In this document: one piece after another, positions 11,098-63,888 of the stretch
How the letters are laid out: every line of letters begins with the position of its first letter
How positions within the stretch are numbered: the stretch's first letter is position 1
Program-made: the position numbers and the translations under genes
Assembly (NCBI GenBank): GCA_003482855.1
Contig: DMXO01000003.1
Location: 16,275 to 80,274 of the forward strand
Direction of reading: 5' to 3'
Length of the DNA stretch: 64,000 nucleotides
Source of the DNA: Candidatus Magasanikiibacteriota bacterium
GTDB lineage: Bacteria > Patescibacteriota > Patescibacteriia > Magasanikbacterales > UBA922
Notes under the pieces: model-generated
What the model saw: the letters and a program-made list of their open reading frames with translations, nothing else
Databases searched by the model: none
What the model was told of the DNA's origin: nothing

Positions 11098-11107
11098 AAC
11101 ACACTAT

Positions 11108-11223: not shown

Positions 11224-12276
11224 CTACAAATACTTCCCCTTCCCCTCTCCTTCTATTTTTTTAAGTAACTCTTTCACACGTGGTACATCATCTTTGTGAC
11301 ACACAAGAAGAGCATCCTTGGTATTTACAACCATCATACCCTTGAGTCCAATAGTCGCTACGAGACGATGGTCATCTTCATTCAAGATAAAACAATCTTT
11401 TGACTCAAGATCTATGACATGACCTTTTTCAAAATTTTTCTGTTCATCACTCACAAGTGCCTCTTTGAGCGCATAGAGTGTGCCGGGATCGCTCCATCCC
11501 AAATCAACTTTAAGTACAATAGCTTGGTCTCCATACACATGCTCAACAATTGCGTTATCAAATGATATGGCTTCAAGATGCTCGTATGCGGTATGTATGT
11601 CACTGACACCGCTCACAATATCTTCAAGTGCCATATACATCTTGGGCTGGTACTTACGATACAAGCCCAATACAAAATCGATATCGAATACAAAATAACC
11701 AGGATTCCACATCCACTCACCCGATTCAAACATTTCTTGGCAACGCAATAATTCGGGTCTGTATTTCCACTCTTTGAATGCATACAGTTCTCCATCTATT
11801 CGTTCGCCAAGACGTATCCATCCCAAATTATGATTTGCAAAACGAGGTTGTTCACCCAAAAATACAAATCTATGTGGATTTTCTTGTATCAAATTCTCTG
11901 CCTTCGTGAGTGCATCACGAAAACGATCAGGGTGACGCATAAAATGATCCGCCCATAACATAGCTATAGTACCAGAAATACCCTGTTGTTTGAGCCGCAT
12001 GAGGGAGAGACCAACCGCAGCAGCCAAATCTCGTCGTGCCGGTTCTCCAAAAATATTCGCTCGCGGTACTTCAGGTACTTGCCCACATACCATATTTACA
12101 TATCTATTGTTGGTAGAAATATAAATATGTTTGAAGCCAAATTCTTCAATACGTTCAACAGCCATCTGCAACGTCGATTTATTATCTTTTAATACTTCAA
12201 ACTGTTTGGGGCTCGACTCACGGCTCAGTGGCCAGAGACGTGTGCCAGATCCACCAGCGAAGATGAGAATAGTCAT
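11224..12276 (-). CDS. mannose-1-phosphate guanylyltransferase (NDP-sugar pyrophosphorylase)
   Basis: GGSGTRLWPLSR nucleotidyltransferase signature. Confidence 0.75.
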   Translation of the reverse strand: MTILIFAGGSGTRLWPLSRESSPKQFEVLKDNKSTLQMAVERIEEFGFKHIYISTNNRYVNMVCGQVPEVPRANIFGEPARRDLAAAVGLSLMRLKQQGISGTIAMLWADHFMRHPDRFRDALTKAENLIQENPHRFVFLGEQPRFANHNLGWIRLGERIDGELYAFKEWKYRPELLRCQEMFESGEWMWNPGYFVFDIDFVLGLYRKYQPKMYMALEDIVSGVSDIHTAYEHLEAISFDNAIVEHVYGDQAIVLKVDLGWSDPGTLYALKEALVSDEQKNFEKGHVIDLESKDCFILNEDDHRLVATIGLKGMMVVNTKDALLVCHKDDVPRVKELLKKIEGEGKGKYL

Positions 12277-12329
12277 AAAATAAACAAAAATAAATTACAA
12301 AATATAAATGTGCACAAAATCCGAATATC

Positions 12330-14352: not shown

Positions 14353-14368
14353 CTAACACGAGAAAACC

Positions 14369-14397
14369 TTGACAAAACAGTTTATTTATGATATAAT
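14369..14397 (+). promoter_or_regulatory. sigma70-type promoter with perfect -35 TTGACA, 17-bp spacer and perfect -10 TATAAT
   Basis: ttgaca at 14369-14374 and tataat at 14392-14397. Drives a ~275-nt hairpin-containing leader and the GC-rich ORF at 14673. Confidence 0.55.
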
Positions 14398-14672
14398 TTG
14401 CTGTTTTGTACCTTACAAAAACTGTCTTCGTGTCCACCAATATATGTATATCTTAACGTGTACATATACTGGTTGGCACAAACAGTCAACCTCAAACACT
14501 GTACAACCTGTCTCAGACAGGTTCACATATCACCCAGATCAAACCACCTTTGTGGCGAAGGTGGTGCAGATATCATAAAGAGCGAGAGTTCGAGTGCCTG
14601 ACTGACCCTACTCAACAGTTCCTACACAAACCCAGTCTCCATTGGTGAGACAGCTACGAAAGAGAGGATACG

Positions 14673-17015
14673 ATGAGCGGAACGACGACGCGCAAGATCG
14701 CCGGCATCGCCGGCAAGGACTGGCTCCTCAACGTGACCGGGATGAAGGTGTTCGGCGACTCGCTCCTCACGGAGCGGGTGCGCAAGGAACTCTCCCGGTT
14801 CGCCTGGGTCCTCCTGATCCAGTTGATCGTGGACCTCTGGGTCTGGACCACCCTGTGGTCCTACGCCCTCCCGAGCTCGATGTTCTGGTCCCTGTCGCTC
14901 GGAACGATGTTCGCCCTGTTGATCTTCAAGGTCGACCAGGGCGTCATCACCCACGACACGTCGAGTGACGAGGGACGCCTCCGGCCGATCATCGGCCGAG
15001 CGATCCTCCTGCTCATGATCGCGCTCATCACGGCCCTCGCCGTGGAACTCGGCGTGTTCGCCACGGCCATCGATCGGCGACTCGACCAGCGCGAGAACAT
15101 CGCGGTCACGGAGCTCAAGGAGACCGAGATCGCGAAGATCAACAGCAAGTACCAGAAGCTGATCGACCAGGCGCGTGCCGACGGCACCGAGGCCACGTCC
15201 CACGCCCAGACCACGGGGCAGCAGGACGTTGAGTCCTACAAGTCCCAGCGTGCCACCGAGCGTGCCTCAATCGAGGCCCGGTACGCGGCCGACAAGAAGG
15301 CCATCGAGGACCAGATCGCCGCCGGCGACCAGCGCATCCTCGACGAGACCAAGGGCCGTTTCACCGGTCGCTCGGGCATCGGCCCCATGGTCATCGCGCT
15401 CCAGCAGGAGAAGGAGAAGGCTCTCGGTGAGCTCTCCAAGATCCGCCAGGCCGAGGCCACCGAACTCGGCACCTTCGACACCACTACCGCGGCCTCCATC
15501 GCCTCGCTCGAGAGCAAGCGCGACACCGACACGGCCACGGCCACGACGACCAACAAGGCGAGGGTCGAAGGCCTCCAGATGCAGTGGGAAGACAAGGTGC
15601 AGGAGATCCGCGAGATGAATCGCGACCGATTCGCCACCATCTACGGTGGTGACTGGAAGCAGGATCGCGGCTTCCTCACCAGGTTCCACGCGCTCCAGGA
15701 GATGGCGAGCGAGGACTCGATCATCCAGTGGCTCATCTGGGGCACCCGGCTCCTGATGATGATCATCGGTATGGCCATCCTCATCCTCAAGCTCAGCTCC
15801 AGCCGTGAGTTCGTCAACTACTTCTCCTACCGGGCGCAGATCGCCGCCGGCAACCCCGACGCCACCGCCCACGCGGAAGCAGAAGGGTACAACGACCCCA
15901 CCAACCGCAAGGCACTCGCCTGGCCACCCGAGACCCTCGAGGTCATGGGTGCCCTGCACATGGCGCGACTCAACCTGTGCAAGGCCTGGCGTGCCTGGTG
16001 GCAGCAGGCCGGTGAGACCTGCAAGCAGGACGCAAAGACTGGCCTCTGCCGGTCCCGCGATGACGTCGCCACCCAGCTCCGGCTGGCGTGGAACTTGACC
16101 GTCCAGCCCATGGTCGACGCCCTGGCCACGGCCGAGCGTGAGGTCGAGCTCAACGGCCGCAGCATCCCCCGCTGGGATGAAACGCGCTACCCCGAGCCCG
16201 ACCCCCGCAACATGACCGAACCGTGGGACCTGTCCGACACGCAGCTCCGCGGTCTCGGATGGGAGGACCCCTCCGAGAAGGTCCGTGATGCCCAGGAGGC
16301 CGTGATTCAGCTGCCGGGTCTCTACCGGCAGATCATCGACTTCATGGCGACCATGGACATGGGAACCCGGCGGCAGATCCGCACTGCTCCGGCCACCTCC
16401 CTCCTCGTGCTCGAGGATCGGCGCTTCCAGTTCTACCACACGCAGATGCGTAGGGTCCTGGAGGACATGGAAGATGCCGAGCGCAAGATCGCTTCGACCG
16501 GTCGGCACATGCCCGAGCGTCCCCGCTCCCTGCGGGAGACGGACCAGATCCGGGAGTGCTGGCGGCTCGACCGCCGCACGCTCCGTGACTGGGGCTGGCA
16601 GCAGGACGTGCCCCGCAGCACGCCCCCTGCTCCGGCTCCTGTCCGGACCCCGGCTCCCACGACCACCTCGGCCCCGACCGCCACGCCCCCGGCCCCGCCG
16701 GTGAACACCGTCTCGACGTCGCTGCCCGAGGTCGACATGTCCCTGACCGGTGACGACGCGACCCGCGTCGACATCCGGCCCCCGGCCGAGCTGGCCGACG
16801 AGACGGACGACGAACCCGAATTCGACGTCGGGGCCGATCTCTCGGAAGCCGACACGAACCCGGGGTCGATCCACCCCGACCTCGTCGCCATCCAGACTGA
16901 GGGCGGCAACGGACAGACGCCGCCGGTCAACGGCGATGGCTTCGGCCAGGACGACATGGCGTTCTTCCGCAGCGAGCCGGAGACGGCCACGCCCGGCGAC
17001 AAGCTGGCCAACTAG
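14673..17015 (+). CDS. GC-rich membrane protein (N-terminal TM helices, central coiled coil, third TM, acidic Pro/Thr-rich C-terminal tail); DUF4407-like architecture
   Basis: Codon third positions are almost all G/C in this frame only. AGAGAGGA SD 5 nt upstream. Composition differs sharply from the flanking DNA. Confidence 0.7.
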   Translation: MSGTTTRKIAGIAGKDWLLNVTGMKVFGDSLLTERVRKELSRFAWVLLIQLIVDLWVWTTLWSYALPSSMFWSLSLGTMFALLIFKVDQGVITHDTSSDEGRLRPIIGRAILLLMIALITALAVELGVFATAIDRRLDQRENIAVTELKETEIAKINSKYQKLIDQARADGTEATSHAQTTGQQDVESYKSQRATERASIEARYAADKKAIEDQIAAGDQRILDETKGRFTGRSGIGPMVIALQQEKEKALGELSKIRQAEATELGTFDTTTAASIASLESKRDTDTATATTTNKARVEGLQMQWEDKVQEIREMNRDRFATIYGGDWKQDRGFLTRFHALQEMASEDSIIQWLIWGTRLLMMIIGMAILILKLSSSREFVNYFSYRAQIAAGNPDATAHAEAEGYNDPTNRKALAWPPETLEVMGALHMARLNLCKAWRAWWQQAGETCKQDAKTGLCRSRDDVATQLRLAWNLTVQPMVDALATAEREVELNGRSIPRWDETRYPEPDPRNMTEPWDLSDTQLRGLGWEDPSEKVRDAQEAVIQLPGLYRQIIDFMATMDMGTRRQIRTAPATSLLVLEDRRFQFYHTQMRRVLEDMEDAERKIASTGRHMPERPRSLRETDQIRECWRLDRRTLRDWGWQQDVPRSTPPAPAPVRTPAPTTTSAPTATPPAPPVNTVSTSLPEVDMSLTGDDATRVDIRPPAELADETDDEPEFDVGADLSEADTNPGSIHPDLVAIQTEGGNGQTPPVNGDGFGQDDMAFFRSEPETATPGDKLAN

Positions 17016-17129
17016 ACCAAGCGACGCCACAACGCAAGGTCTATAAAAACGTCCTCTGTGTGACTCACGCAACTACTGCGACACAGATTCAACATACTAG
17101 CCTCCCTACAGGCGTAGTCCCTACTTTCT

Positions 17130-17202
17130 CGTTTGTTTCTCAAACAAACGGTAGGATGACTCGACTAGGAAGGTTGTGCGATTTGCCCCAAACAAATCGC
17201 AC
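17130..17202. other. two adjacent perfect hairpins (cgtttgttt-ctc-aaacaaacg; gtgcgatttg-ccccaaa-caaatcgcac) in a mid-GC spacer
   Basis: 9- and 10-bp perfect stems read directly. Possible tandem terminators or a small structured RNA. Confidence 0.35.
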
Positions 17203-17244
17203 AGCACAGTGATCTTGAAAATATTTTCGAGATTAGTGTGTAAT

Positions 17245-29115: not shown

Positions 29116-29826
29116 ATGACCAGACAGTTCAGGAAGGGCCGGCCTCGGCGAAAGAAGGGGCAGCAGGCCCCGACGGGGACGAGGCCGAAGGAGTGGCGCA
29201 AGAAGTACACGAACGACGAAGATGACGTCGATGACAACGAGGTGAAGGGGTGGATTGGCTTCGCCCTGCTCGCCTTCGTCATCATCGTGATCGCTGTGTT
29301 CGTGTTGGTCGTCTTCGTCTCGTGCGCCATCGAGGGCGCCGAGTGGCAGGATGGCACCCTGGACACCGACGACCCCCCCACGATCGGAGAGGTCGTCGAG
29401 TCGGACAGCAGTGTCCGCCACTGCACGGGGGGCCTCCCATTCTGCGACTGCGAGACCGACGCCGACTGCCCGGAGGAGTACATCTGCAGCGATCGCTACG
29501 GCTCGCTCTCGTGCGTCGGGCCCGAGTGCACGCCCGACGATGAGGAGGGCATATACAGCGACTGCGACGACGACGAGCGCTGCAGCTTCGACCGCTGCTA
29601 CGAAGGGCGGTGCTTCTACACCCAGTGGACGCACATCCCGGAGTGCTACGGTGAGTCGTCGTGCTACGTGGACGACGACTGCGAAGCGCCGCCCGGCTTC
29701 GAGCCGGGTCCATGCGTCGCGTACGGGTGCTTCCTCCCGAGCGGCGTCTGTGGCGCCGTCGTGCTCGACGGGGAGTCGTGCTCCGCCGGGCTCGGGGTGT
29801 GCGACCCCGATGGCGTGTGCCGCTGA
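29116..29826 (+). CDS. GC-rich single-pass membrane protein with basic N-terminal tail and acidic Cys-rich (CxxDxDC…GxC) extracellular repeats
   Basis: Start set at the ATG preceded by AGGAGGG (29104-29110). The ORF-track start at 28978 lies in AT-rich non-coding DNA. About 30 Cys residues in 4 repeat units. G/C-dominated third positions. Confidence 0.6.
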   Translation: MTRQFRKGRPRRKKGQQAPTGTRPKEWRKKYTNDEDDVDDNEVKGWIGFALLAFVIIVIAVFVLVVFVSCAIEGAEWQDGTLDTDDPPTIGEVVESDSSVRHCTGGLPFCDCETDADCPEEYICSDRYGSLSCVGPECTPDDEEGIYSDCDDDERCSFDRCYEGRCFYTQWTHIPECYGESSCYVDDDCEAPPGFEPGPCVAYGCFLPSGVCGAVVLDGESCSAGLGVCDPDGVCR

Positions 29827-29922
29827 CCATGTCCGGCAAGCATAAAAAACTCAAGGAGACGCGATCGTGGGGGCGATCGCATGGAGTTCAGTGTCCCGAT
29901 GTATATCGGGATAGTGAAATAC

Positions 29923-29957
29923 AAAAATCCGCTGAAAAAGCGGATTTTTGTATTTTG
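29923..29957. terminator. bidirectional rho-independent terminator (aaaaatccgc-tgaaaaa-gcggattttt)
   Basis: 10-bp stem flanked by A- and T-tracts. Confidence 0.6.
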
Positions 29958-38210: not shown

Positions 38211-39158
38211 TTATCTTGTAGACACAGGTTTTGTAACATCTTCAGGATACAATTCAGGATCTATGGTACGGCTAAAGCATACGCGTCCTGCATCATGACT
38301 CCAATTTTGGTTGTATGAATCATAGGGAGATCCAAAATATAATCCTGCGGGTGTTATATCTTTATTGACACGTTCAAATACAACACAAAGTTCAAATGAA
38401 AGCTCATTTGCTATCAGATACTCATATTGTTCATTTGTTTTTGGATCAAGTGGTGCAATAAATCCAGTAATACTATTATTGAGTTCACTCAACTGTACTG
38501 GCAACTCTCTCTTTTGAACCCAATAGTTTACAATCTCTGACTGGATCATTTGAAGATCTTGGACACGTTCATCATCAAATCTACGCGCGCGCTGGTCGGT
38601 CGGTGTACCAATAATAAAAAACCCTGCGATAATACTACCAAGCACAATCGCTGATACGACCCCTGCTAAGATCATGGGTATTTTTGTCTTTTCAAGTGAA
38701 CGCTTCAAATCCCAAAGATAATACCCAAATACAGCTGCAGCCACAAGAAGTACTACCAACACTTTCAATACAAAACGTACGGTAAGTTCGCCACTCAAAA
38801 AATTATATACAAACGTCATGAGATCAATAATAATGGTAATGGCTGAAATAAAAAGTGTAAAATACACGAGCCATTTACGGAGTTTCAGGTTTCTTTTTTC
38901 TGGTGTTTTGTACAAATCTTTCTCAAGCATCCACGACGTCACGAGATACGCAATCACGGCAATCAACAAAACAGATGTCGACCAACGTACGCCATTGGCA
39001 ATATTGGTAAAATAATAATTTAGTTTATCAGGAAATAAAGCATTGATATATTGGATAAAAAGTGTAATAAAACCAATGATACTCAAATAAAATGTCACGA
39101 TATTAAATAAATGTAAAAAGACATCTTTTGGAGTACTGCGAAGTGGTGTTTGTTCCAT
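38211..39158 (-). CDS. membrane protein (possibly DUF5671-like)
   Basis: Four TM segments plus a conserved C-terminal RRFDDERVQDLQMIQSEIVNYW region. Confidence 0.55.
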   Translation of the reverse strand: MEQTPLRSTPKDVFLHLFNIVTFYLSIIGFITLFIQYINALFPDKLNYYFTNIANGVRWSTSVLLIAVIAYLVTSWMLEKDLYKTPEKRNLKLRKWLVYFTLFISAITIIIDLMTFVYNFLSGELTVRFVLKVLVVLLVAAAVFGYYLWDLKRSLEKTKIPMILAGVVSAIVLGSIIAGFFIIGTPTDQRARRFDDERVQDLQMIQSEIVNYWVQKRELPVQLSELNNSITGFIAPLDPKTNEQYEYLIANELSFELCVVFERVNKDITPAGLYFGSPYDSYNQNWSHDAGRVCFSRTIDPELYPEDVTKPVSTR

Positions 39159-39222
39159 AAAAAATGATTATTGTAATAATAAGTTTAGTATAACATGAGA
39201 TGATTCAATTTGTATATGCACA

Positions 39223-39258
39223 AAAAACACCCCTATTTCTAGGAGTGTTTTGTTTGTG
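39223..39258 (-). terminator. rho-independent terminator downstream of the cold-shock gene
   Basis: Hairpin aacac(c)cc-tatttcta-gg(a)gtgtt with flanking A/T tracts. Confidence 0.45.
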
Positions 39259-39265
39259 AAAAAAG

Positions 39266-39469
39266 TTACGCGATTTTGCGGACTTTCACTGCGTTCAAGC
39301 CTTTTGGACTTTCTTCGACTTCGAACTCTACTTTGTCGCCTTCACGAAGATCATCATATTGAACGTCTACGAGCTCATTTCTATGAAAGAAAAGATCTTT
39401 TCCTTCACCTTCACGAGCGATGAAACCAAACCCCTTATCGGTAAGTCTGGCAATAACACCTTGTTGCAT
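39266..39469 (-). CDS. cspA: cold-shock protein
   Basis: GFGFI RNP1 motif and FFH...V RNP2 motif. 67 aa. Confidence 0.9.
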   Translation of the reverse strand: MQQGVIARLTDKGFGFIAREGEGKDLFFHRNELVDVQYDDLREGDKVEFEVEESPKGLNAVKVRKIA

Positions 39470-39624
39470 AGTTGTAAAACAAATAAATTACTTCCCAGCC
39501 TAAGCAGGGAATCAAACATCATGTAGTAATTTCAAACTCGACTTTGTTTGTTTTACAACACTCTTTTTGATATATATATACTATCACAAAACACGCGATA
39601 TGTCAACCTCTCAGCCAATGGACA

Positions 39625-39885
39625 CTATTTATCGTCTCCCATTGCCTTGCGCTCAACGATAATTGTACAGTTCGATACGAGTGCGGCAAGAGCTCCAATA
39701 GCAGCAACTATAGGCGCAGCAAGTACACCTACTGCACCAATAGTAAGGGGAAATTCGATAAGTGTTTCTCCATCTTCCTTCTTTATAATGATTTTACGCG
39801 CATTCCCCTCTTTTACGATTTCCTTTATCTTGGAGACAAGTTTATCTCCAGATATAGTGTACTCTTCGTGTGTTTGCTGTGGCAT
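39625..39885 (-). CDS. DUF4342-domain protein
   Basis: ...KIKEIVKEGNARKIIIKKEDGETLIEFPLTIGAVGVLAAPIVAAIGA... Confidence 0.55.
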   Translation of the reverse strand: MPQQTHEEYTISGDKLVSKIKEIVKEGNARKIIIKKEDGETLIEFPLTIGAVGVLAAPIVAAIGALAALVSNCTIIVERKAMGDDK

Positions 39886-39929
39886 AATGTTATATATTAT
39901 TAAGTAATTTCACTCCTATTAAAAATTTT

Positions 39930-41249
39930 TTAAAGTGAAAATTTTTCAAAAAAAATATGATTATTAGAAGCCCCACATTTCTTCAAAGAGGCTCGTACGC
40001 CCTTCATCATGGCAATTGGTCCACACATATATACATCGGCCTTGTCTATATTTTTTATATACATATTCAAAAATTGTTCGTCCACCCTGCCTTTCAGACC
40101 TTCCCACGACGTATCATCACTAACTAGATAATAAATTTTCAAAAACCGTTCTTGTGTAATTTTTTCTATTTCATCTTTAAATACAAAATCTTTTTTAGAC
40201 TTCACTGAATATACAAGAATAACCTGCTTGTGTTTATCAAATGATTCAATAAGGGCACGAACAGGAGTAATACCAATACCACCAGCAATACATACAACTG
40301 TATCTCTCGTGCTCCTCGCTGTCACAAAATTGCCATGCGGACCGTCAATAATAATAGATGTGCCAGATGATACAGTGCCAAGTTCATGAGTAAAATCACC
40401 AAGATCCTTGAACGTAACACGCAACACACCATCTACCACAGCTGAAGAAAATGAAAAAGGATGTGCTTTCCACCAACGCTTCTTGTCGAGGAAACGAAAA
40501 ATAGCGAATTGTCCTGATTGAACTTTGAATGAATCCAAATTTTTGCCCCTTATATACAAAGAATATACATTGTCATTTTCTGATTCCACATGATCAACAA
40601 CAAAGTGATGTTTATTCCACATATACACTGGTTTTATAAACCTATAGGCAAGCAAATTTCCAAATACTCCTACGTACAATATATACCAATATGCTTGAAA
40701 AATATTATTACCTACAAAATCGCCACCAAGCTCAATCTCATGCCCAAATGCCAAGGCTATGGCTATATATACGGTGAGATGAACGGTATACCACATCTCA
40801 TATGACATCATCCGTCTTATTTTGGAAATAGAAATTACTGCAACACATACCAAAATAAACAAACCGAAAAATGCGCCAACCAACTCATCTCCATAAAACA
40901 AAAAATTATACTGTTGTTGCCAAAAGGAAATATCATTGGTAGATGCGTATGACAAACCCAAAAATATAGGATGTAGTATCAATGATATAAGCAACCACAG
41001 ACCATTGAGGTGGTGAAGATATGTCAGTCGATCGAAACTCAATAGTTTCTCCATCCATGGAATACGTGCAATACACATGACCTGAAACAATACAAAAAAG
41101 GCTGCAAAAAGACCCATAAGCCGCCCGAGTCCAAGCAATAATTGTACATTGTCTCCAGATAACAGGTCTCCAGATGAACTATACCAAAACCAGATAATCA
41201 ATACTATATTGGCACAGGTAAACAGTAATAAAATATATTTTTTATACAT
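39930..41249 (-). CDS. ferric-reductase-like transmembrane protein with FAD/NAD(P)-binding domain (NOX/FRE family)
   Basis: Six TM segments with His pairs, then HPFS(FSS) FAD motif and GGIGITP NAD(P) motif. Confidence 0.75.
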   Translation of the reverse strand: MYKKYILLLFTCANIVLIIWFWYSSSGDLLSGDNVQLLLGLGRLMGLFAAFFVLFQVMCIARIPWMEKLLSFDRLTYLHHLNGLWLLISLILHPIFLGLSYASTNDISFWQQQYNFLFYGDELVGAFFGLFILVCVAVISISKIRRMMSYEMWYTVHLTVYIAIALAFGHEIELGGDFVGNNIFQAYWYILYVGVFGNLLAYRFIKPVYMWNKHHFVVDHVESENDNVYSLYIRGKNLDSFKVQSGQFAIFRFLDKKRWWKAHPFSFSSAVVDGVLRVTFKDLGDFTHELGTVSSGTSIIIDGPHGNFVTARSTRDTVVCIAGGIGITPVRALIESFDKHKQVILVYSVKSKKDFVFKDEIEKITQERFLKIYYLVSDDTSWEGLKGRVDEQFLNMYIKNIDKADVYMCGPIAMMKGVRASLKKCGASNNHIFFEKFSL

Positions 41250-41305
41250 ACAAACAAAATATCATGCACAACTATCATACACTCATATCAGATGCTTTTC
41301 AATAT

Positions 41306-41334
41306 AAAAACACCCACTGTTAGTGGATGTTTTT
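41306..41334. terminator. terminator-like hairpin (aaaaacacccact-gtt-agtggatgttttt)
   Basis: Stem with one mismatch plus T-tract, at the 3' boundary of the GC-rich asparaginase island. Confidence 0.45.
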
Positions 41335-41347
41335 ATTCCATGTGTCC

Positions 41348-41423
41348 GTCTTGAACGGATTCAAGACCACCCTCGTTATGACTATAATTTTTTATAATAA
41401 TAACGAGTTGTCGGGTGGTCTTG
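41348..41423. repeat. strong nested hairpins at the asparaginase 3' boundary (tcttgaa-cgga-ttcaaga; caagaccaccc…gggtggtcttg)
   Basis: A 7-bp perfect stem and an 11-bp perfect inverted repeat enclosing a further inner repeat. Confidence 0.45.
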
Positions 41424-41455
41424 TGAAAAGAACGCCCTCCAACTCTATCTGCATA

Positions 41456-42523
41456 TCAGTCCTCCTCTTCCTCCTCATCCTCGAAGCCGATCAGCAGTTC
41501 GCCGACGATGTTCGTGGAGAGGAACATCTGGATCCGATCCGGGTGCTTGGGGTGCATGGCGATGGCCTGGCGGAACTTGATGTCCCCCATAGCCGGCGTG
41601 AGGCTCTCCAGCGAGAGCGCCCCGGCCGCCTTGGCCTTCGCACCGAGCTCGTACCGACTCAGGACGACGCGCCCGTCCTCGAACGGGGAGAGGATGCCCA
41701 CGTGGATGCCCGCGTCGGTCGCGGCCTTGATCGCGTCGATCCACGAGTAGTTGGCGTCCCCCATGTCCCACGGCCGATCCGGGATGTTGCCCGCGCCCTT
41801 GGCCTCAAGGATCACGCCCTTGATGCGACCAGCCTTGACCATATCCATCAGGACGTAGGGCGGGGTGTCAGCGGACACCATGAGCGACACTACGTGCTGC
41901 TCAAACTTGGTGTCGAGGCGGAGGCCCTGGACCGCGGCGACGGGGTCCTTGCGATGGACGCCGTCCATGATCATGATCTTCGGGAAGGCTTTGGCCACAG
42001 GGTGACGTCCGGGCGTGTGGAACGCCGCGAAGTCGGCCTCGTTGCGCTTGCGGACACGCGAGCCGTCGAGCACGTCGCCGAGGCAGACGCTGTAGACGCC
42101 CACGATGCCGTTCCGCAGGAAGGACTTGCCGACGCGCATGGTGTTCGCCACCTGCATGGCCACATCCGAGCCCGACTCCTCCTTGGTCATCTGCGCGCCG
42201 ATCACGAAGACCGGCTTCTGCAGCGACAGCTTGAAGAGCATGGCCAGGAACGCACAGGACTCCGCCAGGGAATCCGTGCCATGCAGGATGATGAACATCT
42301 CGTGGTCGTCGTAGGCCGCCGCGATCATCTGGCCCATCACGACCCGGTCGTTGTGCATGACGTTGGTCGAGTCCTGCCGTTGCGGGAAGTCCTCGAGCGT
42401 CAGCTCGATGCCCTTGGGGAGTACGATCCCCTCAAGCAGCTCGGCCGCGGACTTCGCGGGATGCAACGGATCCCCGACCATCCCCAGAGTTCCTCCCGTG
42501 TTAAGAACGTATGCTTTCTTCAT
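41456..42523 (-). CDS. ansA: L-asparaginase (type I / GatD-like asparaginase family), GC-rich
   Basis: TGGTLGM and HGTDSL signatures. Start set at the ATG preceded by GGAAGGAA; the ORF-track start is a TTG. G/C-dominated third positions. Confidence 0.8.
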   Translation of the reverse strand: MKKAYVLNTGGTLGMVGDPLHPAKSAAELLEGIVLPKGIELTLEDFPQRQDSTNVMHNDRVVMGQMIAAAYDDHEMFIILHGTDSLAESCAFLAMLFKLSLQKPVFVIGAQMTKEESGSDVAMQVANTMRVGKSFLRNGIVGVYSVCLGDVLDGSRVRKRNEADFAAFHTPGRHPVAKAFPKIMIMDGVHRKDPVAAVQGLRLDTKFEQHVVSLMVSADTPPYVLMDMVKAGRIKGVILEAKGAGNIPDRPWDMGDANYSWIDAIKAATDAGIHVGILSPFEDGRVVLSRYELGAKAKAAGALSLESLTPAMGDIKFRQAIAMHPKHPDRIQMFLSTNIVGELLIGFEDEEEEED

Positions 42524-42605
42524 CTTCGGTTCCTTCCACAATCAAAGGCTCTTCACCTCCACACTCCCACACTCGCGGGTGTGCGCTCGGTGTTATCGAC
42601 CCTCC

Positions 42606-42643
42606 AGCACACTGATTATCTAGTCAAAGATAAACAATGTGCT
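42606..42643. promoter_or_regulatory. imperfect 9-bp inverted repeat (agcacactg…caatgtgct) enclosing atctttgactagat, in the asparaginase 5' region
   Basis: Read directly. Candidate operator. Confidence 0.3.
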
Positions 42644-42755
42644 AAAGGGTTAAATTTTTTTGTAAAGAACTATTATTTAAAAAAAGTTTTAACCGCAAAA
42701 TATACCAGACATACAAAGAAAAACAATGACTAAACACCGACCTTGTCTAGAACAG

Positions 42756-43373
42756 CTAACCACTAAACATAATTTTCCGTATAAGTTCGCTAAGATTATG
42801 GTTGTGGATATTGTTGAAACGAAATTCCATTTCTTTGAAGTACAACAACACATATTTTTTATTGATCCCATTATATTTTTTTAATTTGGTTTTCACATAT
42901 GTCCAAAACATTTTTGTTTCATCAACTAAAATCTTATTCGTCAATTTCGTTTTGTACGGTTTGGTGTTATAATAGGTATGTCCATTCAAAATTAAAGCAT
43001 CATATATTTTAAAACTTTGTGTATCTCGCACATCAAATGGCACAATATGAGTACGCATGATCTGTTTTAATTTCAATGCTTCTATATCGTTTACTGCACC
43101 TGTAAAAATAGTATTATCGAGCTTGCAAATACCTATTATTGATACTAGTGATTCTATATTTTTTGTTAGATACACATACGGAAATTTCTTATCACACTCA
43201 CAGGCAATAGCAGTCCGAATGAAAAAATAAATACGATCTACGGTGTGACGATTTATTTTTATTATCTGACTCGCTTTGGACGCAGGAACTTCCAATACAA
43301 ACAAATCAATTATTTTTTCAATTTGTCTATTAGAAAGTTTGCTGTTCTTTATTAATCGATGTTTCATACACAC
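42756..43373 (-). CDS. IS1595-family(-like) transposase
   Basis: N-terminal LSNRQIEKIIDLFVLEVPASKASQIIKINRHTVDRIYFFIR resembles the IS1595/ISXO2-type HTH region, with a DDE-like ...VDET... segment. Adjacent to the GC-rich island. Confidence 0.45.
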   Translation of the reverse strand: MCMKHRLIKNSKLSNRQIEKIIDLFVLEVPASKASQIIKINRHTVDRIYFFIRTAIACECDKKFPYVYLTKNIESLVSIIGICKLDNTIFTGAVNDIEALKLKQIMRTHIVPFDVRDTQSFKIYDALILNGHTYYNTKPYKTKLTNKILVDETKMFWTYVKTKLKKYNGINKKYVLLYFKEMEFRFNNIHNHNLSELIRKIMFSG

Positions 43374-43410
43374 ACTATTCTTATTGTTCTATACAAGCCA
43401 CATACAGCCC

Positions 43411-43453
43411 ATAAGCAGATTAAGCTACAAAATTTAATTACTTAATCTGCTTA
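43411..43453. repeat. 13-bp perfect inverted repeat (taagcagattaag / cttaatctgctta) upstream of the transposase gene
   Basis: The same TTAATCTGCTTA unit recurs in tandem at 63414..63450. Confidence 0.45.
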
Positions 43454-43591
43454 CTTTGCTTATTCTGTTTATAGACTTGTATAGGACATGGATTATTGAT
43501 TGTGCGTGTACTTTATGTTAATCTCTATAGGGTGTTCAATGACACCCTTGGGTGAAGAATATCACCCCATATTTTTACTTAATTTTTCTCT

Positions 43592-44386
43592 ATGTACAGC
43601 GAATTATTGCAAGAACTAAATCTCTCACCTAACGAAGCAAAAATATACGAAGGCATGCTATCCACAGGAGAAACCAATGCTTCTATTATTGCACTGCGTT
43701 CAAATGTGCCAAGACGCAATGTATACGACGCATTAAACCGTTTAATCGAGAAAGGTTTGGTATACAAAATTGTTGGATCAGGAGAAAACTTATTTCAAGC
43801 GGTAAATCCAAACAAACTGCTCGACTTGCTTCATGAAAAAGAAAAATGGCTCAAAAGCAAATTGCCAGAGCTTCAAGATTTATACGCGACCGATCCCCCG
43901 CTCAAAGCCGCGTATATTTATAGCGGCGTAGAAGGATACAAAAATTACCACAATGATTTGTTGCGAATCTCACAAAAAGAAGAAGTGTATTTTTTAGGTG
44001 CAAAAGCATTGTGGAACAGTCCGCAGGTGAACAAAGCTTTTCGCACCAATTATTTGAAAGAATTTGAAAAAAGAAAAGTTCCCTACTACACGCTGTTTGA
44101 TCCGGGAGTTTTACGCGAACTTCCAGAAGTAGTACAAAATGCAAAAGGAGAATATAAAGTATTGCCTGATCAATACGCAACGCAAGGTTTGGTAGATATT
44201 TTTGGCGACTATGTGGTGACTTTTAGCGGCGTGCATGTAGGCAGATTTGATGATCACTTGAGAATTTTTATTATCATTGACAAAGACCTTGCCAATACCT
44301 ATCGCACATGGTTCAAAATGATTTGGGATCTGCTCCCTGGAAAATCTTGGACTGAAACGCAACAGACAGTACTTTTGAAAAAATGA
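43592..44386 (+). CDS. TrmB-family transcriptional regulator
   Basis: NLSPNEAKIYEGMLSTGETNASIIALRSNVPRRNVYDALNRLIEKGLV TrmB-type HTH. Confidence 0.75.
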   Translation: MYSELLQELNLSPNEAKIYEGMLSTGETNASIIALRSNVPRRNVYDALNRLIEKGLVYKIVGSGENLFQAVNPNKLLDLLHEKEKWLKSKLPELQDLYATDPPLKAAYIYSGVEGYKNYHNDLLRISQKEEVYFLGAKALWNSPQVNKAFRTNYLKEFEKRKVPYYTLFDPGVLRELPEVVQNAKGEYKVLPDQYATQGLVDIFGDYVVTFSGVHVGRFDDHLRIFIIIDKDLANTYRTWFKMIWDLLPGKSWTETQQTVLLKK

Positions 44387-44447
44387 TATCTTGCTATAAC
44401 AAAACACCCTGACAAAGGGTGTTTTTAGTATTTTAACATCAAATATC

Positions 44448-45788
44448 CTAATACACACCAAGATATCTCTCTCGTTCCCAATCTGTCACATGAATCCTAA
44501 ATTCATCCCATTCTCTCATTTTTATATCATGGTACTTTTTGTATGTCACCGCACCAAGCACATCTTTTACTACTTCATCTTTCGCAAGTGCATGTAACGA
44601 GCCATACAGGTCAGCAGATAATGTATCAATACCGCGATTCATCATCTCTTCAGTCGTGAATTCATATACGTTCTCTTCCACTGGAACCGGGGGCATCATT
44701 TCATTTTCTATACCATCGAGTCCCGCTGCAAGCATGACTGCAAAAGCAAGATATGGATTTGCAGAAGGATCTGGACAGCGGAGTTCTACACGAGTTGCTT
44801 TTGGTCGAGCAGGATTAATGCGTGGAACACGGATAAGTGCTGAACGATTGGTCTGACCCCAAGATAGATAGACAGGCGCTTCGTATCCTGCGACCAATCG
44901 CTTATATGAATTTACAAGTGGATTCAAAATAGCATTCATAGCTTTGATATGTTTGAGCTGTCCTGCAATGAAATTGCGAGCCAGTAGAGAAAGCCCATAC
45001 TCTGCCTGTGCATCATAAAATGCATTGTTTCCTCCAACAAAAATACTTTGATGCACATGCATACCTGAGCCATTGATTCCAAAAAATGGTTTTGGCATAA
45101 ACGTCGCGTGCAAACCATACTTTGCAGCAATCATTTTAAGTGTGTATTTGAATGTTGTTGCATTGTCTGCAGTCATGAGTGGATCACCGTATTTGAAATC
45201 TATCTCATGTTGGCCATCTGCAACCTCATGATGTAGGGCTTCAACCTCTATACCAAGCTCTTGCAACGCATTGGTCATCTCTTTTCTCACCTCAGTTGCA
45301 GCATCAATTGCTTGATCAAAATATCCAGCATTGTCATGTGGCAAGGGTACGATGTTTCCGTTATCTTTTTTAAGAAGAAAAAATTCTAATTCCGGACCAC
45401 AAAAATATTTGTATCCCAAGCTTTCTGCGCGGGCAATCTGTTGTTTTAAAATATAGCGTGGATCACTTTCATATGGTTCACCATTTGGTCTATATACATC
45501 ACAAAAAAGGCGAGCTGTCACATTAATACCCTCTTTGGTCCATGGAAGTAGGGCGAATGTTGAGAGATCTAATTTCAAATACATATCACTTTCAAATATA
45601 CGCGCAAAACCTTCAATCGAAGATCCATCAAACCACACATTTCCATCTATTCCCTCTTCTAGTTTTTCAACAGGAATAGTCACTGCTTTTAGTTGACCGA
45701 GCAAATCGGTAAACTGCAGATCAACAAATTTGACTCTTTCTTTCTCGCATAGCGAGAGTATCTCCTCCTTGGTGTATGCTTGAGACAT
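44448..45788 (-). CDS. glnA: glutamine synthetase, type I
   Basis: 446 aa. GS beta-grasp N-terminal domain and catalytic domain motifs. Confidence 0.9.
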   Translation of the reverse strand: MSQAYTKEEILSLCEKERVKFVDLQFTDLLGQLKAVTIPVEKLEEGIDGNVWFDGSSIEGFARIFESDMYLKLDLSTFALLPWTKEGINVTARLFCDVYRPNGEPYESDPRYILKQQIARAESLGYKYFCGPELEFFLLKKDNGNIVPLPHDNAGYFDQAIDAATEVRKEMTNALQELGIEVEALHHEVADGQHEIDFKYGDPLMTADNATTFKYTLKMIAAKYGLHATFMPKPFFGINGSGMHVHQSIFVGGNNAFYDAQAEYGLSLLARNFIAGQLKHIKAMNAILNPLVNSYKRLVAGYEAPVYLSWGQTNRSALIRVPRINPARPKATRVELRCPDPSANPYLAFAVMLAAGLDGIENEMMPPVPVEENVYEFTTEEMMNRGIDTLSADLYGSLHALAKDEVVKDVLGAVTYKKYHDIKMREWDEFRIHVTDWERERYLGVY

Positions 45789-45830
45789 AGCGGGTTAAAT
45801 TAATAATTAATTAATAATTAATTAATAAAA

Positions 45831-46463
45831 TTAAATAATTTGTATACATAATCTAATTGCAAAGAATATAAGCAGGCTAGACATAGCAAGATAAAAAACG
45901 TTTGTTAACCATTGTATCTTTAATTTGAAAACAAAAAAACCTAACAACATAACAAATATGAAACAAGCTAATGCGCCTATCATCAAAAATAGAGAACTAA
46001 CTATAACTTGCGACATCGAAAATGTTTTAATTGCAAATAAAGTACCTGCCACACCTATAAAATATAAAATTGTTGGCGGGTGCAATGACACAAGTAACAT
46101 ACCATTCCAAAATGTTTTTTTATCCACTAATTTTATTATTTTCTTATCCTTTTTTATCGCAACTGTTAGACCATTCACCCCTAACAATAACATATAGCCC
46201 ACACCTGCCAGACCTAATAATAATTTTAACCAAGCAATGTTTACAATAAATTGTATTATTCCAACATATGCTAACATCAAAAACAAGCCATCCATACAGG
46301 AAGCTCCCAAAGCCAATACCAAGCTCTCCCTTATCCTCCCTATTACAGAGCTTTGTAAAACGGTAGTCTGCACCGCTCCAGGCAAAGCCGCAGCAGTAAA
46401 ACCTATAACAAATGCATCTAAGAAAATCATATTCCAAAATTTACTAATCGTAAATTGTTTCAA
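45831..46463 (-). CDS. LysE-type translocator-like membrane protein
   Basis: Six TM segments. AALPGAVQTTVL near the N-terminus. Confidence 0.45.
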   Translation of the reverse strand: MKQFTISKFWNMIFLDAFVIGFTAAALPGAVQTTVLQSSVIGRIRESLVLALGASCMDGLFLMLAYVGIIQFIVNIAWLKLLLGLAGVGYMLLLGVNGLTVAIKKDKKIIKLVDKKTFWNGMLLVSLHPPTILYFIGVAGTLFAIKTFSMSQVIVSSLFLMIGALACFIFVMLLGFFVFKLKIQWLTNVFYLAMSSLLIFFAIRLCIQII

Positions 46464-46488
46464 AATTCAAAATCTAAAATTATTCTAG

Positions 46489-46560
46489 CTCCCCCGGTAG
46501 GACTCGAACCTACAACATCTGCATTAACAGTGCAGTGTTCTACCATTGAACTACAGGGGA
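46489..46560 (-). tRNA. tRNA-Asn (anticodon GTT)
   Basis: Manual cloverleaf: acceptor TCCCCTG/CGGGGGA, D-arm GTTC/GAAC, anticodon stem CTGCA/TGCAG with loop CTGTTAA, T-arm GTAGG-TTCGAGT-CCTAC. CCA not encoded. Confidence 0.85.
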
Positions 46561-61974: not shown

Positions 61975-63291
<1,317 letters not shown>

Positions 63292-63306
63292 ATGATAAAA
63301 AAATAA

Positions 63307-63331
63307 AAAACTGCTTAAATTGAGCAGTTTT
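63307..63331. terminator. bidirectional terminator-like hairpin (aaaactgct-taaattg-agcagtttt)
   Basis: 9-bp stem with A/T tracts, between the TrpR-like and trpB2 genes. Confidence 0.4.
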
Positions 63332-63413
63332 AAATAATAAAAAATAAGCACTGCTCAGCTTCGCCAGCAGTTCCACCAATTTAATAAATTTCCATTCCCT
63401 TTCATAATACAAA

Positions 63414-63450
63414 GCTTAATCTGCTTATTGCTTAATCTGCTTAATCAATA
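63414..63450. repeat. tandem gcttaatctgctta repeats overlapping the stop of the TrpR-like gene
   Basis: gcttaatctgcttattgcttaatctgcttaatc. Same unit as the inverted repeat at 43411..43453. Confidence 0.45.
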
Positions 63451-63706
63451 TCTTCCCAAATCCCCCTTTTTTATCCAACAACTCTCGAGCTCCTCTCTCA
63501 ACCTTTGAAATGCTCACCCCAAGTTTCTTCGCCACCTCACGCTGAGTAATCCCTTGACTAAGTAATTTAACAATCTGCCAGCGCAAAACAATGTCCTTCA
63601 CTTCAGCAGGTGTAAGCAAATCAACCAAAAAATCTTCCATTAATTTTACGTCCTTTATCCCAGATAAAATTTTCAAAAGTTCTTTTTTATTCTGCACAAA
63701 TCCCAT
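63425..63706 (-). CDS. TrpR-like regulator (YerC/YecD family)
   Basis: LLTPAEVKDIVLRWQIVKLLSQGITQREVAKKLGVSISKVERGAREL. Start set at the internal Met (63704-63706). Confidence 0.6.
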   Translation of the reverse strand: MGFVQNKKELLKILSGIKDVKLMEDFLVDLLTPAEVKDIVLRWQIVKLLSQGITQREVAKKLGVSISKVERGARELLDKKGGFGKILIKQIKQ

Positions 63707-63888
63707 ATATAAAGTTCTAGTTTGGTATTTGCATTTTGAGTTTGTACTACTGTACCAGTACAACGATATACTACCAAATAAAAAATCCACAGTCAATAAC
63801 GGCTGTGGATAACAAAAATTATCATGTTCCAAAAATCTTTCAGGACCTATGACCTAAAATAGCCTACCCAATACCTCGTCACACTTCT

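Follow-up and report, generated by a model that had tools for sequence, protein, structure and literature searches.

Gene content of the asparaginase locus

The window, that is the whole 64,000 nt stretch analysed, belongs to the genome of Candidatus Magasanikbacteria, an ultra-small groundwater bacterium with a genome GC content of roughly 40%. The locus discussed here is composed of an asparaginase gene with its leader and trailer, an IS1595-derived ORF, a TrmB-family regulator (trmB) and a glutamine synthetase (glnA). Its features, and two other GC-rich genes of the window, are the following:

41300..41455, minus strand: 3' trailer of the asparaginase gene, with stems and terminator
41304-41336: A-tract/T-tract intrinsic terminator in the trailer
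41346-41365: 8-bp stem in the trailer, overlapping the outer-stem region
41362-41423: outer 11-bp stem with nested inner stems in the trailer
41456..42523, minus strand: asparaginase coding sequence, the GC-rich cargo (355 aa, NCBI HAT03450.1, GC 0.64, GC3 0.89)
41327..42733, plus strand: spurious antisense ORF of 468 aa (GC1/GC2/GC3 0.77/0.37/0.60)
42524..42700, minus strand: 5' leader of ~175 nt, with an AT-rich part, a 22-bp hairpin, a GC-rich part with a second stem, and the Shine-Dalgarno (SD) site
42756..43373, minus strand: IS1595-derived ORF (203-205 aa), sub-threshold family matches, DDE triad gone
43412-43424 / 43441-43453, no strand assigned: 13-nt perfect palindrome TAAGCAGATTAAG-N16-CTTAATCTGCTTA in a lineage-specific stretch of ~50 nt
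43531..43566, plus strand: tandem pair of GGTG-N8-CACC palindromes directly preceding trmB
43592..44386, plus strand: TrmB-family regulator (Pfam TrmB), the conserved anchor gene
44448..45788, minus strand: glutamine synthetase glnA (Pfam Gln-synt_N, Gln-synt_C)
14673..17015, plus strand: DUF4407 membrane protein (780 aa), second single-gene island (GC 0.67, GC3 0.90)
29116..29826, plus strand: Cys-rich protein (236 aa, one TM segment), third island (GC 0.67, GC3 0.90)

The asparaginase coding sequence has a GC content of 0.638 versus 0.399 for the remainder of the window, and its GC3 of 0.89 compares to a window median of 0.317 (MAD-sd 0.031, 53 ORFs), a deviation of the kind expected for a horizontally acquired island. 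The GC3 of 50 other ORFs of the window ranges from 0.21 to 0.39, and no ORF falls between 0.40 and 0.89. Measured over 400 nt at a time, the GC content passes from 0.36-0.43 to 0.60-0.66 across ~41430 to 42610 and then to 0.29; the boundaries are sharp and lie at most ~100 nt from the ends of the ORF.

The ATG at 42523, with the SD GGAAGGAA before it, is the true start of the gene, and the ORF is intact, with the catalytic residues kept. The original prediction of a GC-rich asparaginase gene with its own SD, unlike its neighbours, is borne out on each point. In NCBI the 355 aa product is labelled only as a hypothetical protein. The gene calls of JGI, Logan and ENA take the 468 aa antisense ORF instead (called in contigs L078-L083 and catalogued as P0123/P0124, without a Pfam match on record). 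Judged from its GC1/GC2/GC3, which are typical of an antisense frame to a GC3-rich gene, this ORF is spurious. As most pipelines call it, the exact 355 aa product has no match in the contig index.

The leader runs from the AT-rich part with the 22-bp hairpin (42599-42650) through the GC-rich part with the second stem to the SD. Fold energies obtained for the leader are -58 kcal/mol (z -7.3, over 42524..42700) and -32.4 kcal/mol (z -8.0), and that of the 3' trailer is -56.3 kcal/mol (z -7.8); z scores are relative to shuffled controls, and for the last two values 0 of 200 shuffles folded as well. An inverted repeat 5' of the gene and a terminator-like hairpin with nested inverted repeats 3' of it had been predicted and were all recovered, as the leader hairpin, the terminator and the 11-bp stem with its inner stems, respectively. 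A homologous leader precedes the allele in contig L001 (Magasanikbacteria GWC2_37_14); counted from the start, the hairpins of the two alleles lie at -119 and -118. The hairpins of the locus are a 5' leader stem common to this second Magasanikbacteria allele, the 3' stems and the terminator. In Rfam the leader, the trailer and the element upstream of trmB returned no known RNA family, the sole hits being spurious miRNA hairpin matches. Directly after the trailer the ferric reductase gene has its promoter-like site (41302-41274).

The asparaginase and its family

The protein carries the Pfam domains PF00710 (Asparaginase N-terminal, 91.9 bits, gathering cut-off 22.5) and PF17763 (Asparaginase C-terminal, 45.9 bits, gathering cut-off 34.6). 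The catalytic residues T18, T89, D90 and K165 (361-aa numbering), i.e. the threonine of the TGGT motif, the Thr-Asp pair of HGTDS and the lysine, do not vary among 21 members of the family, the window protein being one of them, and align to the 9ufq asparaginase. By domains and by catalytic residues the protein belongs to the asparaginase/glutaminase superfamily. The original assignment to type I is approximate: TIGR00519 (asnASE_I) is the best NCBIfam model, but its score of 119.8 bits is less than half the cut-off of 260.5. Like the type I L-asparaginases (E. coli AnsA, the Thermococcus/Pyrococcus enzymes and the amidase domain of GatD), the window protein is composed of Asparaginase_N and Asparaginase_C, keeps the catalytic residues, and aligns over its full length to the type I structures 9ufq, 5ot0 and 2p2d. 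Among solved structures the nearest are type I asparaginases from archaea and bacteria, which are matched weakly (E ~1e-21).

Out of 257 homologues, all those with a taxon name are from Patescibacteria or DPANN archaea, with 55-78% identity, while the next group outside these lineages, in Fusobacteria and Clostridia, is merely 25-30% identical. Sequence comparison places the window protein in a separate, tightly conserved clade of type-I-like L-asparaginases which, unlike type I asparaginases, is seen in Patescibacteria and DPANN only. Its predicted activity is the hydrolysis of asparagine (or glutamine), and the ammonia released would probably serve the glutamine synthetase, glnA being the presumed functional partner that consumes it.

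Neighbouring genes and the locus in relatives

The anchor of the locus is trmB, whose product is 90-92% identical in contigs L084-L087 and L011. The two GGTG-N8-CACC palindromes upstream of it are conserved in six relatives with the stems kept and almost no covariation, and the motif has 3 matches in the window versus 0.46 expected; the pair is probably the autoregulatory operator of TrmB.

The gene beside trmB varies among close relatives. In L084 it is an 869 aa double asparaginase at native GC, in L011/L087 a glutaminase-ankyrin gene together with a 63%-identical asparaginase of GC 0.49, and in L086 another gene, a different occupant again. Conservation of the same GC-rich asparaginase at this place in all relatives would have spoken against recent transfer; it is absent there from L084, L011/L087 and L086. 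As no relative found shows synteny on the ferric-reductase side, no empty site was available for comparison and composition alone defines the junctions of the asparaginase. Of the usual hallmarks of mobility (integrase, tRNA target, repeats) none was seen: there is no integrase among the 10 neighbouring ORFs scanned, no direct repeats were found flanking the window asparaginase, and the tRNA-Asn lies 4 kb off, beyond glnA and lysE.

The gene predicted to be an IS1595-like transposase is indeed homologous to this family (ISXO2-like DDE). Its 119 homologues nearly all carry PF12762, and it is 35-58% identical to the compact IS1595 transposases of 218-225 aa which are abundant in Patescibacteria. 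Its own scores, however, are below threshold (Pfam 24.8 vs 27, NCBIfam 40.9 vs 75), and unlike members of the family it has lost all three catalytic positions. In alignment A5 the DESYFGG...GRGAAGK block with the first D is deleted, the second D is displaced or missing with YSD changed to RDT, and NGIENFW has K in place of its E. The N-terminal HTH and the C-terminal segment are kept, the ORF being shortened by a deletion of 16-17 aa, and P0127 and the L084 ortholog have the same defects. The ORF is host-like in composition (GC 0.30, GC3 0.29) and occurs once in the window. The IS ends and target-site duplications suggested as a check were not found: no matching arms of terminal inverted repeats occur around 42700-43480 or 41300-43480, nor do direct repeats (of at least 14 nt) as a target-site duplication for the ORF with or without the asparaginase.

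In the synteny comparison that had been suggested, the asparaginase and the transposase gene are not absent together. An ortholog of the ORF adjoins trmB in the same place and orientation in L084 and L085, both of which have no GC-rich gene there, and the ORF therefore predates the acquisition of the asparaginase. By its sequence and conserved position it is a long-resident, catalytically dead relic or a domesticated HTH protein and not an active IS. The 13-bp perfect inverted repeat predicted upstream of it exists as described, in a ~50 nt stretch which is absent from relatives. Its 13-mer has four exact copies in the window, two of them outside the palindrome, at 63415-63443. The palindrome was rejected both as IS ends, as its two arms lie upstream of the ORF, and as a conserved operator, being lineage-specific.

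Origin of the asparaginase gene

In a plain neighbour-joining tree without support values the window allele groups with the compositionally foreign alleles of L001, L023, L008 and L005, next to alleles of Paceibacterota, Kaiserbacteria and Taylorbacteria and apart from L011, which belongs to a relative of the host. To the extent that such a tree without bootstrap support can tell, gene phylogeny and host relatedness disagree, in agreement with the acquisition that had been predicted. In the moderately GC-rich Patescibacteria L006 and L030 (flanks of 0.53-0.57 GC) the asparaginase is natively of 0.63-0.67 GC, and a genome of this type is a plausible donor type. The donor itself was not found among the homologues: the best non-self match has 78% identity and forms a GC-rich island too (L094), and no contig with a close asparaginase allele has flanks of more than 0.57 GC. 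An actinobacterial or other non-CPR donor was rejected, the named homologues being all from Patescibacteria or DPANN. This fits transfer between Patescibacteria, since most gene transfers into groundwater Patescibacteria originate in other Patescibacteria (Gios et al., mSystems 2025, PMC12455944), a paper in which asparaginase is not mentioned.

We consider, with a probability of about 0.7, that the asparaginase is a single-gene island of ~1.2-1.4 kb horizontally acquired from a more GC-rich member of the Patescibacteria/DPANN, and that the IS1595-like ORF had no part in it. Of the predicted mobile-element-associated cargo gene the horizontal acquisition thus probably stands, while the link to a mobile element does not. 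The unit would consist of the 5' leader, the asparaginase ORF and the short 3' trailer, passed from the more GC-rich part of the Patescibacteria/DPANN gene pool to the AT-rich Magasanikbacteria genome. There it would have landed in a variable amidohydrolase slot beside trmB and glnA, or replaced an earlier occupant of it, the gene now being transcribed, as proposed, from an AT-rich host-type promoter and stopped at a host-type intrinsic terminator. The gene probably integrated after being taken up as a fragment of gene size or as a small circular cassette, and not by transposition. What the data show is foreign composition, an assembly that is reproducible, membership of the family, a slot that varies in relatives, a foreign position in the tree, the lost DDE triad and the hairpins; from these we infer from whom and in which direction the gene passed, how it integrated and its physiological role. 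That neither a donor nor an empty site was found counts against this explanation, and so do two other observations. The common, partly AT-rich leader of the L001 and window alleles is explained better by a unit of common ancestry than by captures unrelated to each other. The DUF4407 gene has a syntenic ortholog, also GC-rich, in L097, a genome whose GroEL is just 80% identical, and a picture of recent transfer followed by amelioration does not easily accommodate that island.

Three other explanations have far less in their favour. An IS1595-type element carrying the asparaginase as cargo, mobilised by the adjacent transposase, is suggested by the position of the homologous ORF on the same strand, 232 nt from the asparaginase start, but is very unlikely and was rejected. 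The DDE triad is lost, neither the ORF alone nor the ORF with the asparaginase is bracketed by terminal inverted repeats or a target duplication, the ORF has host composition, its ortholog adjoins trmB in L084 and L085 with a different neighbour, and 0 other GC-rich asparaginase islands have an adjacent IS1595 gene. Abrupt shifts of composition are also the classic sign of a chimeric contig, and several pipelines call the gene on the wrong strand; a foreign fragment joined to the Magasanikbacteria contig by misassembly or by binning is nonetheless hardly credible. The region 39001-46500, both junctions included, is 100% identical in six assemblies (JGI, Logan, ENA) from several samples, assemblers, pipelines and databases, the boundaries coincide with gene ends with SD, promoter-like site and terminator in place, and the same gene family shows the same phenomenon in unrelated MAGs; on the six independent identical assemblies a chimera was rejected. 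Single genes of foreign composition with their own promoter and terminator resemble phage morons, and a moron or accessory gene left behind after delivery by a phage or plasmid would look similar. This too is most improbable, as IMG/VR yielded no relative of any of the three island genes, the asparaginase, DUF4407 and Cys-rich proteins have no PHROG or PADLOC matches, and no phage or plasmid genes are present among the neighbouring ORFs scanned or called; an origin from a phage or a defence island is accordingly unsupported in these databases.

A more serious competitor, although still an unlikely one, is that GC-rich genes circulate as a pool among Patescibacteria and that the window asparaginase is one cassette of it and not a one-off capture. 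Insertion would be by recombination at short host-like intergenic segments, and the GC-rich composition would be kept by transfer outpacing amelioration or by gene-specific constraint. Three single-gene islands in 64 kb with equal GC3 (0.89-0.90) point in this direction. The clade of the asparaginase forms GC-rich islands in at least seven other contigs (L001, L023, L094, L096/L030, L104, L102, L005), each in its own different context. No GC-rich donor genome was seen, and this and the leader hairpin common to the window and L001 alleles likewise speak for it. Direct repeats of host-like intergenic DNA (71-150 nt) bracket GC-rich genes in three relatives (71 nt at 94% identity in L023, ~150 nt at 84-89% in L096, ~75 nt in L097), and the flanks of the DUF4407 island are 77-82% identical at the DNA level in L097, while the cargo protein is merely 57% identical and GC-rich in both. 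As for the relatives of these other islands, the word-based search with DUF4407, saturated by a low-complexity tail, returned one homologue, and the Cys-rich 236 aa protein had no family match. Against circulating cassettes, blastn detected no boundary or att sequence common to the three islands of the window, the window asparaginase has no flanking direct repeats, and no recombinase lies beside any island among the neighbouring ORFs scanned. A CAGTG...TAGTG motif 3' of the DUF4407 island (island 1) and of island 2 was rejected, being derived post hoc and with a count not above chance, and an apparent cargo turnover between L097 and L099 turned out to be the same sequence with different gene-call starts. 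Repeated ordinary transfer from unsampled GC-rich Patescibacteria accounts for most of the pattern.

Acquisition of a single gene resembles the individually transferred genes and small islands described by Gios et al. (PMC12455944) in three respects: a single metabolic gene of foreign composition within a streamlined genome of Patescibacteria, a donor pool that apparently consists of other Patescibacteria and exchanges with DPANN archaea, and no classical mobility genes attached. It differs from them in the extreme contrast (GC3 0.89 vs 0.32), in the island being exactly one gene, and in a family which is foreign in many lineages and whose donor is not identifiable. There is also some likeness to integron cassettes or Campbell-type insertions, since single foreign ORFs are followed by structured hairpin elements and the GC-rich genes of L023, L096 and L097 lie between direct repeats. 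Unlike integrons, no IntI-type integrase (10 ORFs scanned) and no attC consensus were identified here, and unlike attC the repeats of those three relatives are promoter-bearing host-like intergenic DNA, the window asparaginase having none.

The boldest reading, which we regard as rather doubtful, is that an AT-rich Patescibacteria host circulates GC-rich single-gene cassettes by an undescribed system of cassette exchange or maintenance of composition. The set would comprise the CPR/DPANN-specific asparaginase, the DUF4407 membrane protein and small Cys-rich secreted proteins, inserted through recombination into short intergenic segments that carry a promoter or a hairpin, and leaving direct repeats of 70-150 nt. 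If true, genes of GC3 ~0.9 would long be kept in hosts of GC3 ~0.3 without a recognisable integrase or transposase. Two features merit a survey: the recurrent GC-rich asparaginase clade with no sampled donor, and the repeats flanking GC-rich genes in relatives.

From the practical point of view, a match to an IS family beside a gene of foreign origin should not be read as evidence of mobilisation, the transposase in this case being a conserved, inactivated relic. The asparaginase will be missed when metabolism is reconstructed from this MAG and others like it, because three public resources annotate the antisense ORF and NCBI gives the product only as hypothetical. As a probable horizontal acquisition the locus is an unusually clean single-gene case in the Candidate Phyla Radiation: exactly one gene, connected to a promoter and a terminator of host type, at a locus for nitrogen scavenging where near relatives carry different occupants. 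This suggests that the supply of ammonia from amides is a trait which these reduced bacteria have repeatedly re-equipped.

Composition and identity of the asparaginase gene

The G+C content of the window is low and uniform (about 0.37-0.41 per kb), with three sharp exceptions at 14.6-17.1 kb, 29.1-29.85 kb and 41.4-42.6 kb. The third is the asparaginase gene, which, as stated in the original prediction, is GC-rich unlike its neighbours: its coding sequence has a GC of 0.638 against 0.399 in the remaining window, and a GC3 of 0.89 against a window median of 0.317 (robust sd 0.031; 53 non-overlapping ORFs). The GC3 of the window is strictly bimodal, the 50 ORFs outside the islands ranging from 0.21 to 0.39. 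A TrmB protein identical to that of the window occurs on 20 contigs, and all six contigs compared (JGI, Logan and ENA; several groundwater samples) are 100% identical over 39001-46500 or the part covered. As both composition junctions are present in all six, an assembly artefact is ruled out.

Features of the asparaginase island
~42730-42700, minus: promoter-like AT-rich region
42650-42599, minus: 22-bp hairpin
3' of this hairpin, minus: GC-rich leader with a second stem, then the SD, then the ORF
41456..42541, minus: asparaginase ORF, Pfam Asparaginase_N and Asparaginase_C both above gathering
directly after the ORF, minus: ~45 nt of intermediate composition
41423-41362 (long stem), minus: long stem and overlapping short stem
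41336-41304, minus: A-tract/T-tract terminator
immediately past the terminator in minus-strand order: promoter-like site of the ferric reductase gene
41327..42733, plus: spurious antisense ORF, a 468-aa or 451-aa gene call opposite the asparaginase

Translation most likely begins with the ATG at 42523; it follows GGAAGGAA, so that the gene does have its own SD. The resulting 355-aa product is identical to NCBI HAT03450.1 ('hypothetical protein DCS29_01575, Candidatus Magasanikbacteria bacterium'). Homologues at E 1e-10 or better number 257, the best 120 of which are 51-78% identical, with P0001 being the same protein (100%). Those of the best 120 that carry a taxon name all belong to Patescibacteria (Kaiser-, Nomura-, Magasanik-, Doudnabacteria and others) or to DPANN archaea (Aenigm-, Micrarchaeota); in species-representative genomes the next-nearest group, Fusobacteria and Clostridia, is just 24-30% identical. 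The catalytic residues do not vary in the family alignment (the nucleophilic Thr of TGGT, the Thr-Asp pair of HGTDS, and the Lys); among solved structures, type I asparaginases of archaea and bacteria, together with GatD, come closest (E 1e-21 to 1e-18). The type I model TIGR00519 is the top NCBIfam match, but at 119.8 it misses its cut-off of 260.5; the earlier label of type-I asparaginase thus holds for the superfamily and for type I likeness and not for the model itself. On these grounds the protein is classified, from its sequence, as a type-I-like superfamily member in a distinct clade common to two groups of ultra-small prokaryotes.

In the JGI, Logan and ENA gene calls the asparaginase is replaced by the opposite-strand ORF of 468 or 451 aa, whose GC1/GC2/GC3 of 0.77/0.37/0.60 is the pattern expected when a GC3-rich gene is read in antisense. 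For this reason an exact look-up of the asparaginase among the contig gene calls gave no match. NCBI holds the correct 355-aa product, but names it 'hypothetical protein' only.

The inverted repeats previously noted around the gene are all present and fold far better than shuffled controls, with -32.4 kcal/mol (z -8.0) for the 5' leader hairpin and -56.3 kcal/mol (z -7.8) for the 3' trailer of three stems and terminator; two Rfam searches on the hairpin elements returned no credible family. The leader is homologous over ~170 nt to that of the allele of Magasanikbacteria GWC2_37_14 (L001), with the hairpin at -119 in the window and -118 in L001. The hairpin core AGCACA/TGTGCT is conserved and its flanks differ yet are complementary. 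Because of this homology and spacing, the transferred or shared unit is taken to include the leader.

The IS1595-like gene and the locus beside trmB

The asparaginase had been proposed to be cargo of a mobile element, represented by the adjoining IS1595-like ORF (42756..43373, minus). This ORF is homologous to compact 218-225-aa IS1595 transposases, which are common in Patescibacteria and lie mostly on ~1 kb contigs, as expected of an active multi-copy IS. The window ORF scores below the Pfam and NCBIfam cut-offs and, aligned with canonical members, is devoid of the DESYFGG...GRGAAGK block bearing the first Asp, has RDT for YSD, and has K for the Glu of NGIENFW; the same triad defects are found in P0127 and in the ortholog of the related contig L084. 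Its composition is host-like (GC3 0.29), no terminal inverted repeats or target-site duplication were found around it, and both L084 and L085 carry it beside trmB, placed and oriented alike, its 5' part being 72% identical at the DNA level. On this evidence the ORF is judged to predate the acquisition of the asparaginase and to be unable to transpose; that it moved the asparaginase is excluded, and the proposed transposase link is refuted. The open frame and the well-conserved N-terminal HTH are kept in three lineages, which suggests domestication. The derived subfamily without the DDE triad (194-212 aa: window 42756-43373, minus; L084 7272-7856, minus; P0127) keeps, besides the HTH, a C-terminal FW..K.KLKKY..KEMEFRFN, two members being syntenic beside trmB, and may represent a domesticated transposase.

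The 13-bp perfect inverted repeat upstream of this ORF is present, but its reading as an element end is rejected. It lies in a ~50-nt stretch missing from L084 and L085, and the 13-mer TAAGCAGATTAAG is a short genomic motif with four exact copies in the 64 kb: the inverted pair at 43412-43453 and a tandem pair at 63415-63443 (minus), between a TrpR-like ORF (63425..63832) and a trpB-like gene (61975..63351). The 13-mer may serve as a binding site for a regulator.

The locus is anchored by TrmB (43592..44386, plus), whose identity to the proteins of relatives is 92% for L084, 91-92% for both L085 and L086, and 90% for L011/L087 (Candidatus Magasanikbacteria RIFOXYC2_FULL_42_28).

Genes beside trmB in relatives
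L084: IS1595-like ORF, then an 869-aa protein with two asparaginase modules, native GC ~0.40
L011/L087: EF-hand_14-glutaminase-ankyrin protein, small ankyrin protein, 355-aa asparaginase
L086: unrelated gene

The L011/L087 asparaginase is just 63% identical to that of the window and has a GC of 0.49 against flanks of 0.41. Since these relatives carry different genes there, an amide-hydrolysing enzyme is the usual occupant of the slot adjacent to trmB (which in the window has glnA on its far side), but the enzyme varies from one near relative to the next. The same asparaginase with similar GC was not found at this locus in all relatives, so the synteny leaves horizontal acquisition unrefuted.

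Several other features of the locus were recorded. In L011 (8048-9616, plus) the 522-aa EF-hand_14, Glutaminase and ankyrin protein, beside trmB and the native asparaginase, has the domain order of animal kidney-type glutaminase. Between 26 and 61 nt ahead of the trmB start lie the tandem palindromes GGTGTTCAATGACACC and GGTGAAGAATATCACC (43525-43570, plus). They are conserved in six relatives and show hardly any covariation, which makes them look like a protein operator rather than RNA. GGTG-N8-CACC occurs three times in the window against 0.46 expected, with two conserved copies upstream of trmB and the third inside the asparaginase CDS (41864-41879). The sole tRNA gene of the window, tRNA-Asn(GTT) (46488-46560, minus), is separated from the asparaginase by 4 kb that include glnA and lysE, and no island boundary in the window is associated with it.

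Recurrence of GC-rich single-gene islands

In a neighbour-joining tree of 30 asparaginase alleles, that of the window clusters with L001 and L023; L008 and L005 are close by, and alleles of Paceibacterota, Kaiserbacteria and Taylorbacteria lie alongside this group. The allele of the relative L011 falls in another clade, which supports horizontal acquisition, and DPANN alleles are nested among bacterial ones. The alleles closest to that of the window are GC-rich single-gene islands too, and their contexts show no mutual synteny.

GC of close asparaginase alleles and of their flanks
L001, Magasanikbacteria GWC2_37_14: gene 0.643, flanks 0.365
L023, Parcubacteria BM521: gene 0.634, flanks 0.410
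L094, metagenome contig: gene 0.632, flanks 0.476
L096 (= L030), Magasanikbacteria GWA2_56_11, mosaic contig: gene 0.673, flanks mosaic
L104, metagenome contig: gene 0.653, flanks 0.431
L102, metagenome contig: gene 0.581, flanks 0.422
L005, Patescibacteria: gene 0.610, flanks 0.454

In L001 the GC-rich CPR-type copy (10016-11098, GC 0.65) directly precedes a canonical AT-rich asparaginase (11293-12321, GC 0.35, 28% identical, 197 bits to Pfam Asparaginase), so that a foreign and a native amidohydrolase stand in tandem. In L094 two identical 23-nt tRNA D-arm-like segments, 78 nt apart (3964-4064), ~280 nt upstream of the GC-rich asparaginase, suggest tandem tRNA genes adjoining that insertion.

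Both other islands of the window are likewise single genes:
14673..17015, plus: DUF4407 membrane protein, 780 aa, GC3 0.90, between prfB and groEL
29116..29826, plus: Cys-rich protein, 236 aa, one TM segment, GC3 0.90

The Cys-rich gene is followed by a hairpin-rich trailer and terminator (29917-29955); its product matches nothing in Pfam, NCBIfam, PADLOC or PHROG and lacks relatives in IMG/VR, and none of the three island genes has relatives in IMG/VR, PADLOC or PHROGs. The sole DUF4407 homologue found (L097-L099, 55-57% identical) is in orthologous position; in L097 (region 1305-6900) GroEL is 80% and two further neighbours are 46% identical. DNA identity extends to the promoter/leader (window 14363-14490, 82% over 128 nt) and the trailer (17106-17241, 77% over 136 nt), and the L097 gene is GC-rich as well (GC 0.58 and GC3 0.73; flanks 0.39).

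In three relatives GC-rich genes are bracketed by host-like intergenic DNA in direct repeat:
L023, 9798-9868 and 11278-11348: 71 nt, promoter-bearing, 94% identical, before the asparaginase and before the GC-rich gene next to it, which encodes a small secreted Cys-rich protein
L096, 2014-2156 and 3922-4065: ~150 nt, promoter-bearing, 84-89% identical, before the asparaginase and the next GC-rich gene (a 443-aa acetyltransferase)
L097: ~75-nt 3' element after both of two consecutive GC-rich genes

Such a repeat-cargo-repeat layout would be the expected trace of single-crossover insertion of a small circle. No direct repeats were found flanking the window asparaginase, nor a boundary sequence common to the three window islands.

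Origin and possible role

Foreign composition, the variable slot and the position in the tree support the part of the original prediction which described the asparaginase as a horizontally acquired cargo gene. The best-supported reading is that a gene-sized unit was acquired from within the Patescibacteria/DPANN pool, from a member richer in GC, and entered the variable amidohydrolase slot, where it would be expressed from host-type signals. Candidate routes of integration are DNA uptake followed by illegitimate or short-homology recombination, and the cassette-type insertion which relatives suggest. No donor was found, and no close-allele contig has flanks above 0.57 GC; as L006 and L030 carry the gene natively at 0.63-0.67 GC where flanks are 0.53-0.57, genomes of this type are plausible donors and a 65% GC genome is not required. 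A published study of groundwater Patescibacteria reports ~83% of inferred single-gene transfers to be between Patescibacteria and some to involve DPANN, and does not mention asparaginase (PMC12455944). The lack of a donor, the strictly bimodal GC3, the GC-rich DUF4407 island at the orthologous site of a fairly distant relative and the flanking repeats in relatives together keep alive a less ordinary explanation, by which GC-rich cassettes circulate or GC-richness is maintained; we consider it unlikely.

The place of the gene between glnA and a TrmB-family regulator, together with general knowledge of asparaginases and glutamine synthetase, suggests that the enzyme would supply glutamine synthetase with ammonia released from asparagine or glutamine. 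The case is chiefly valuable for showing that the pattern recurs and that annotation can go astray.
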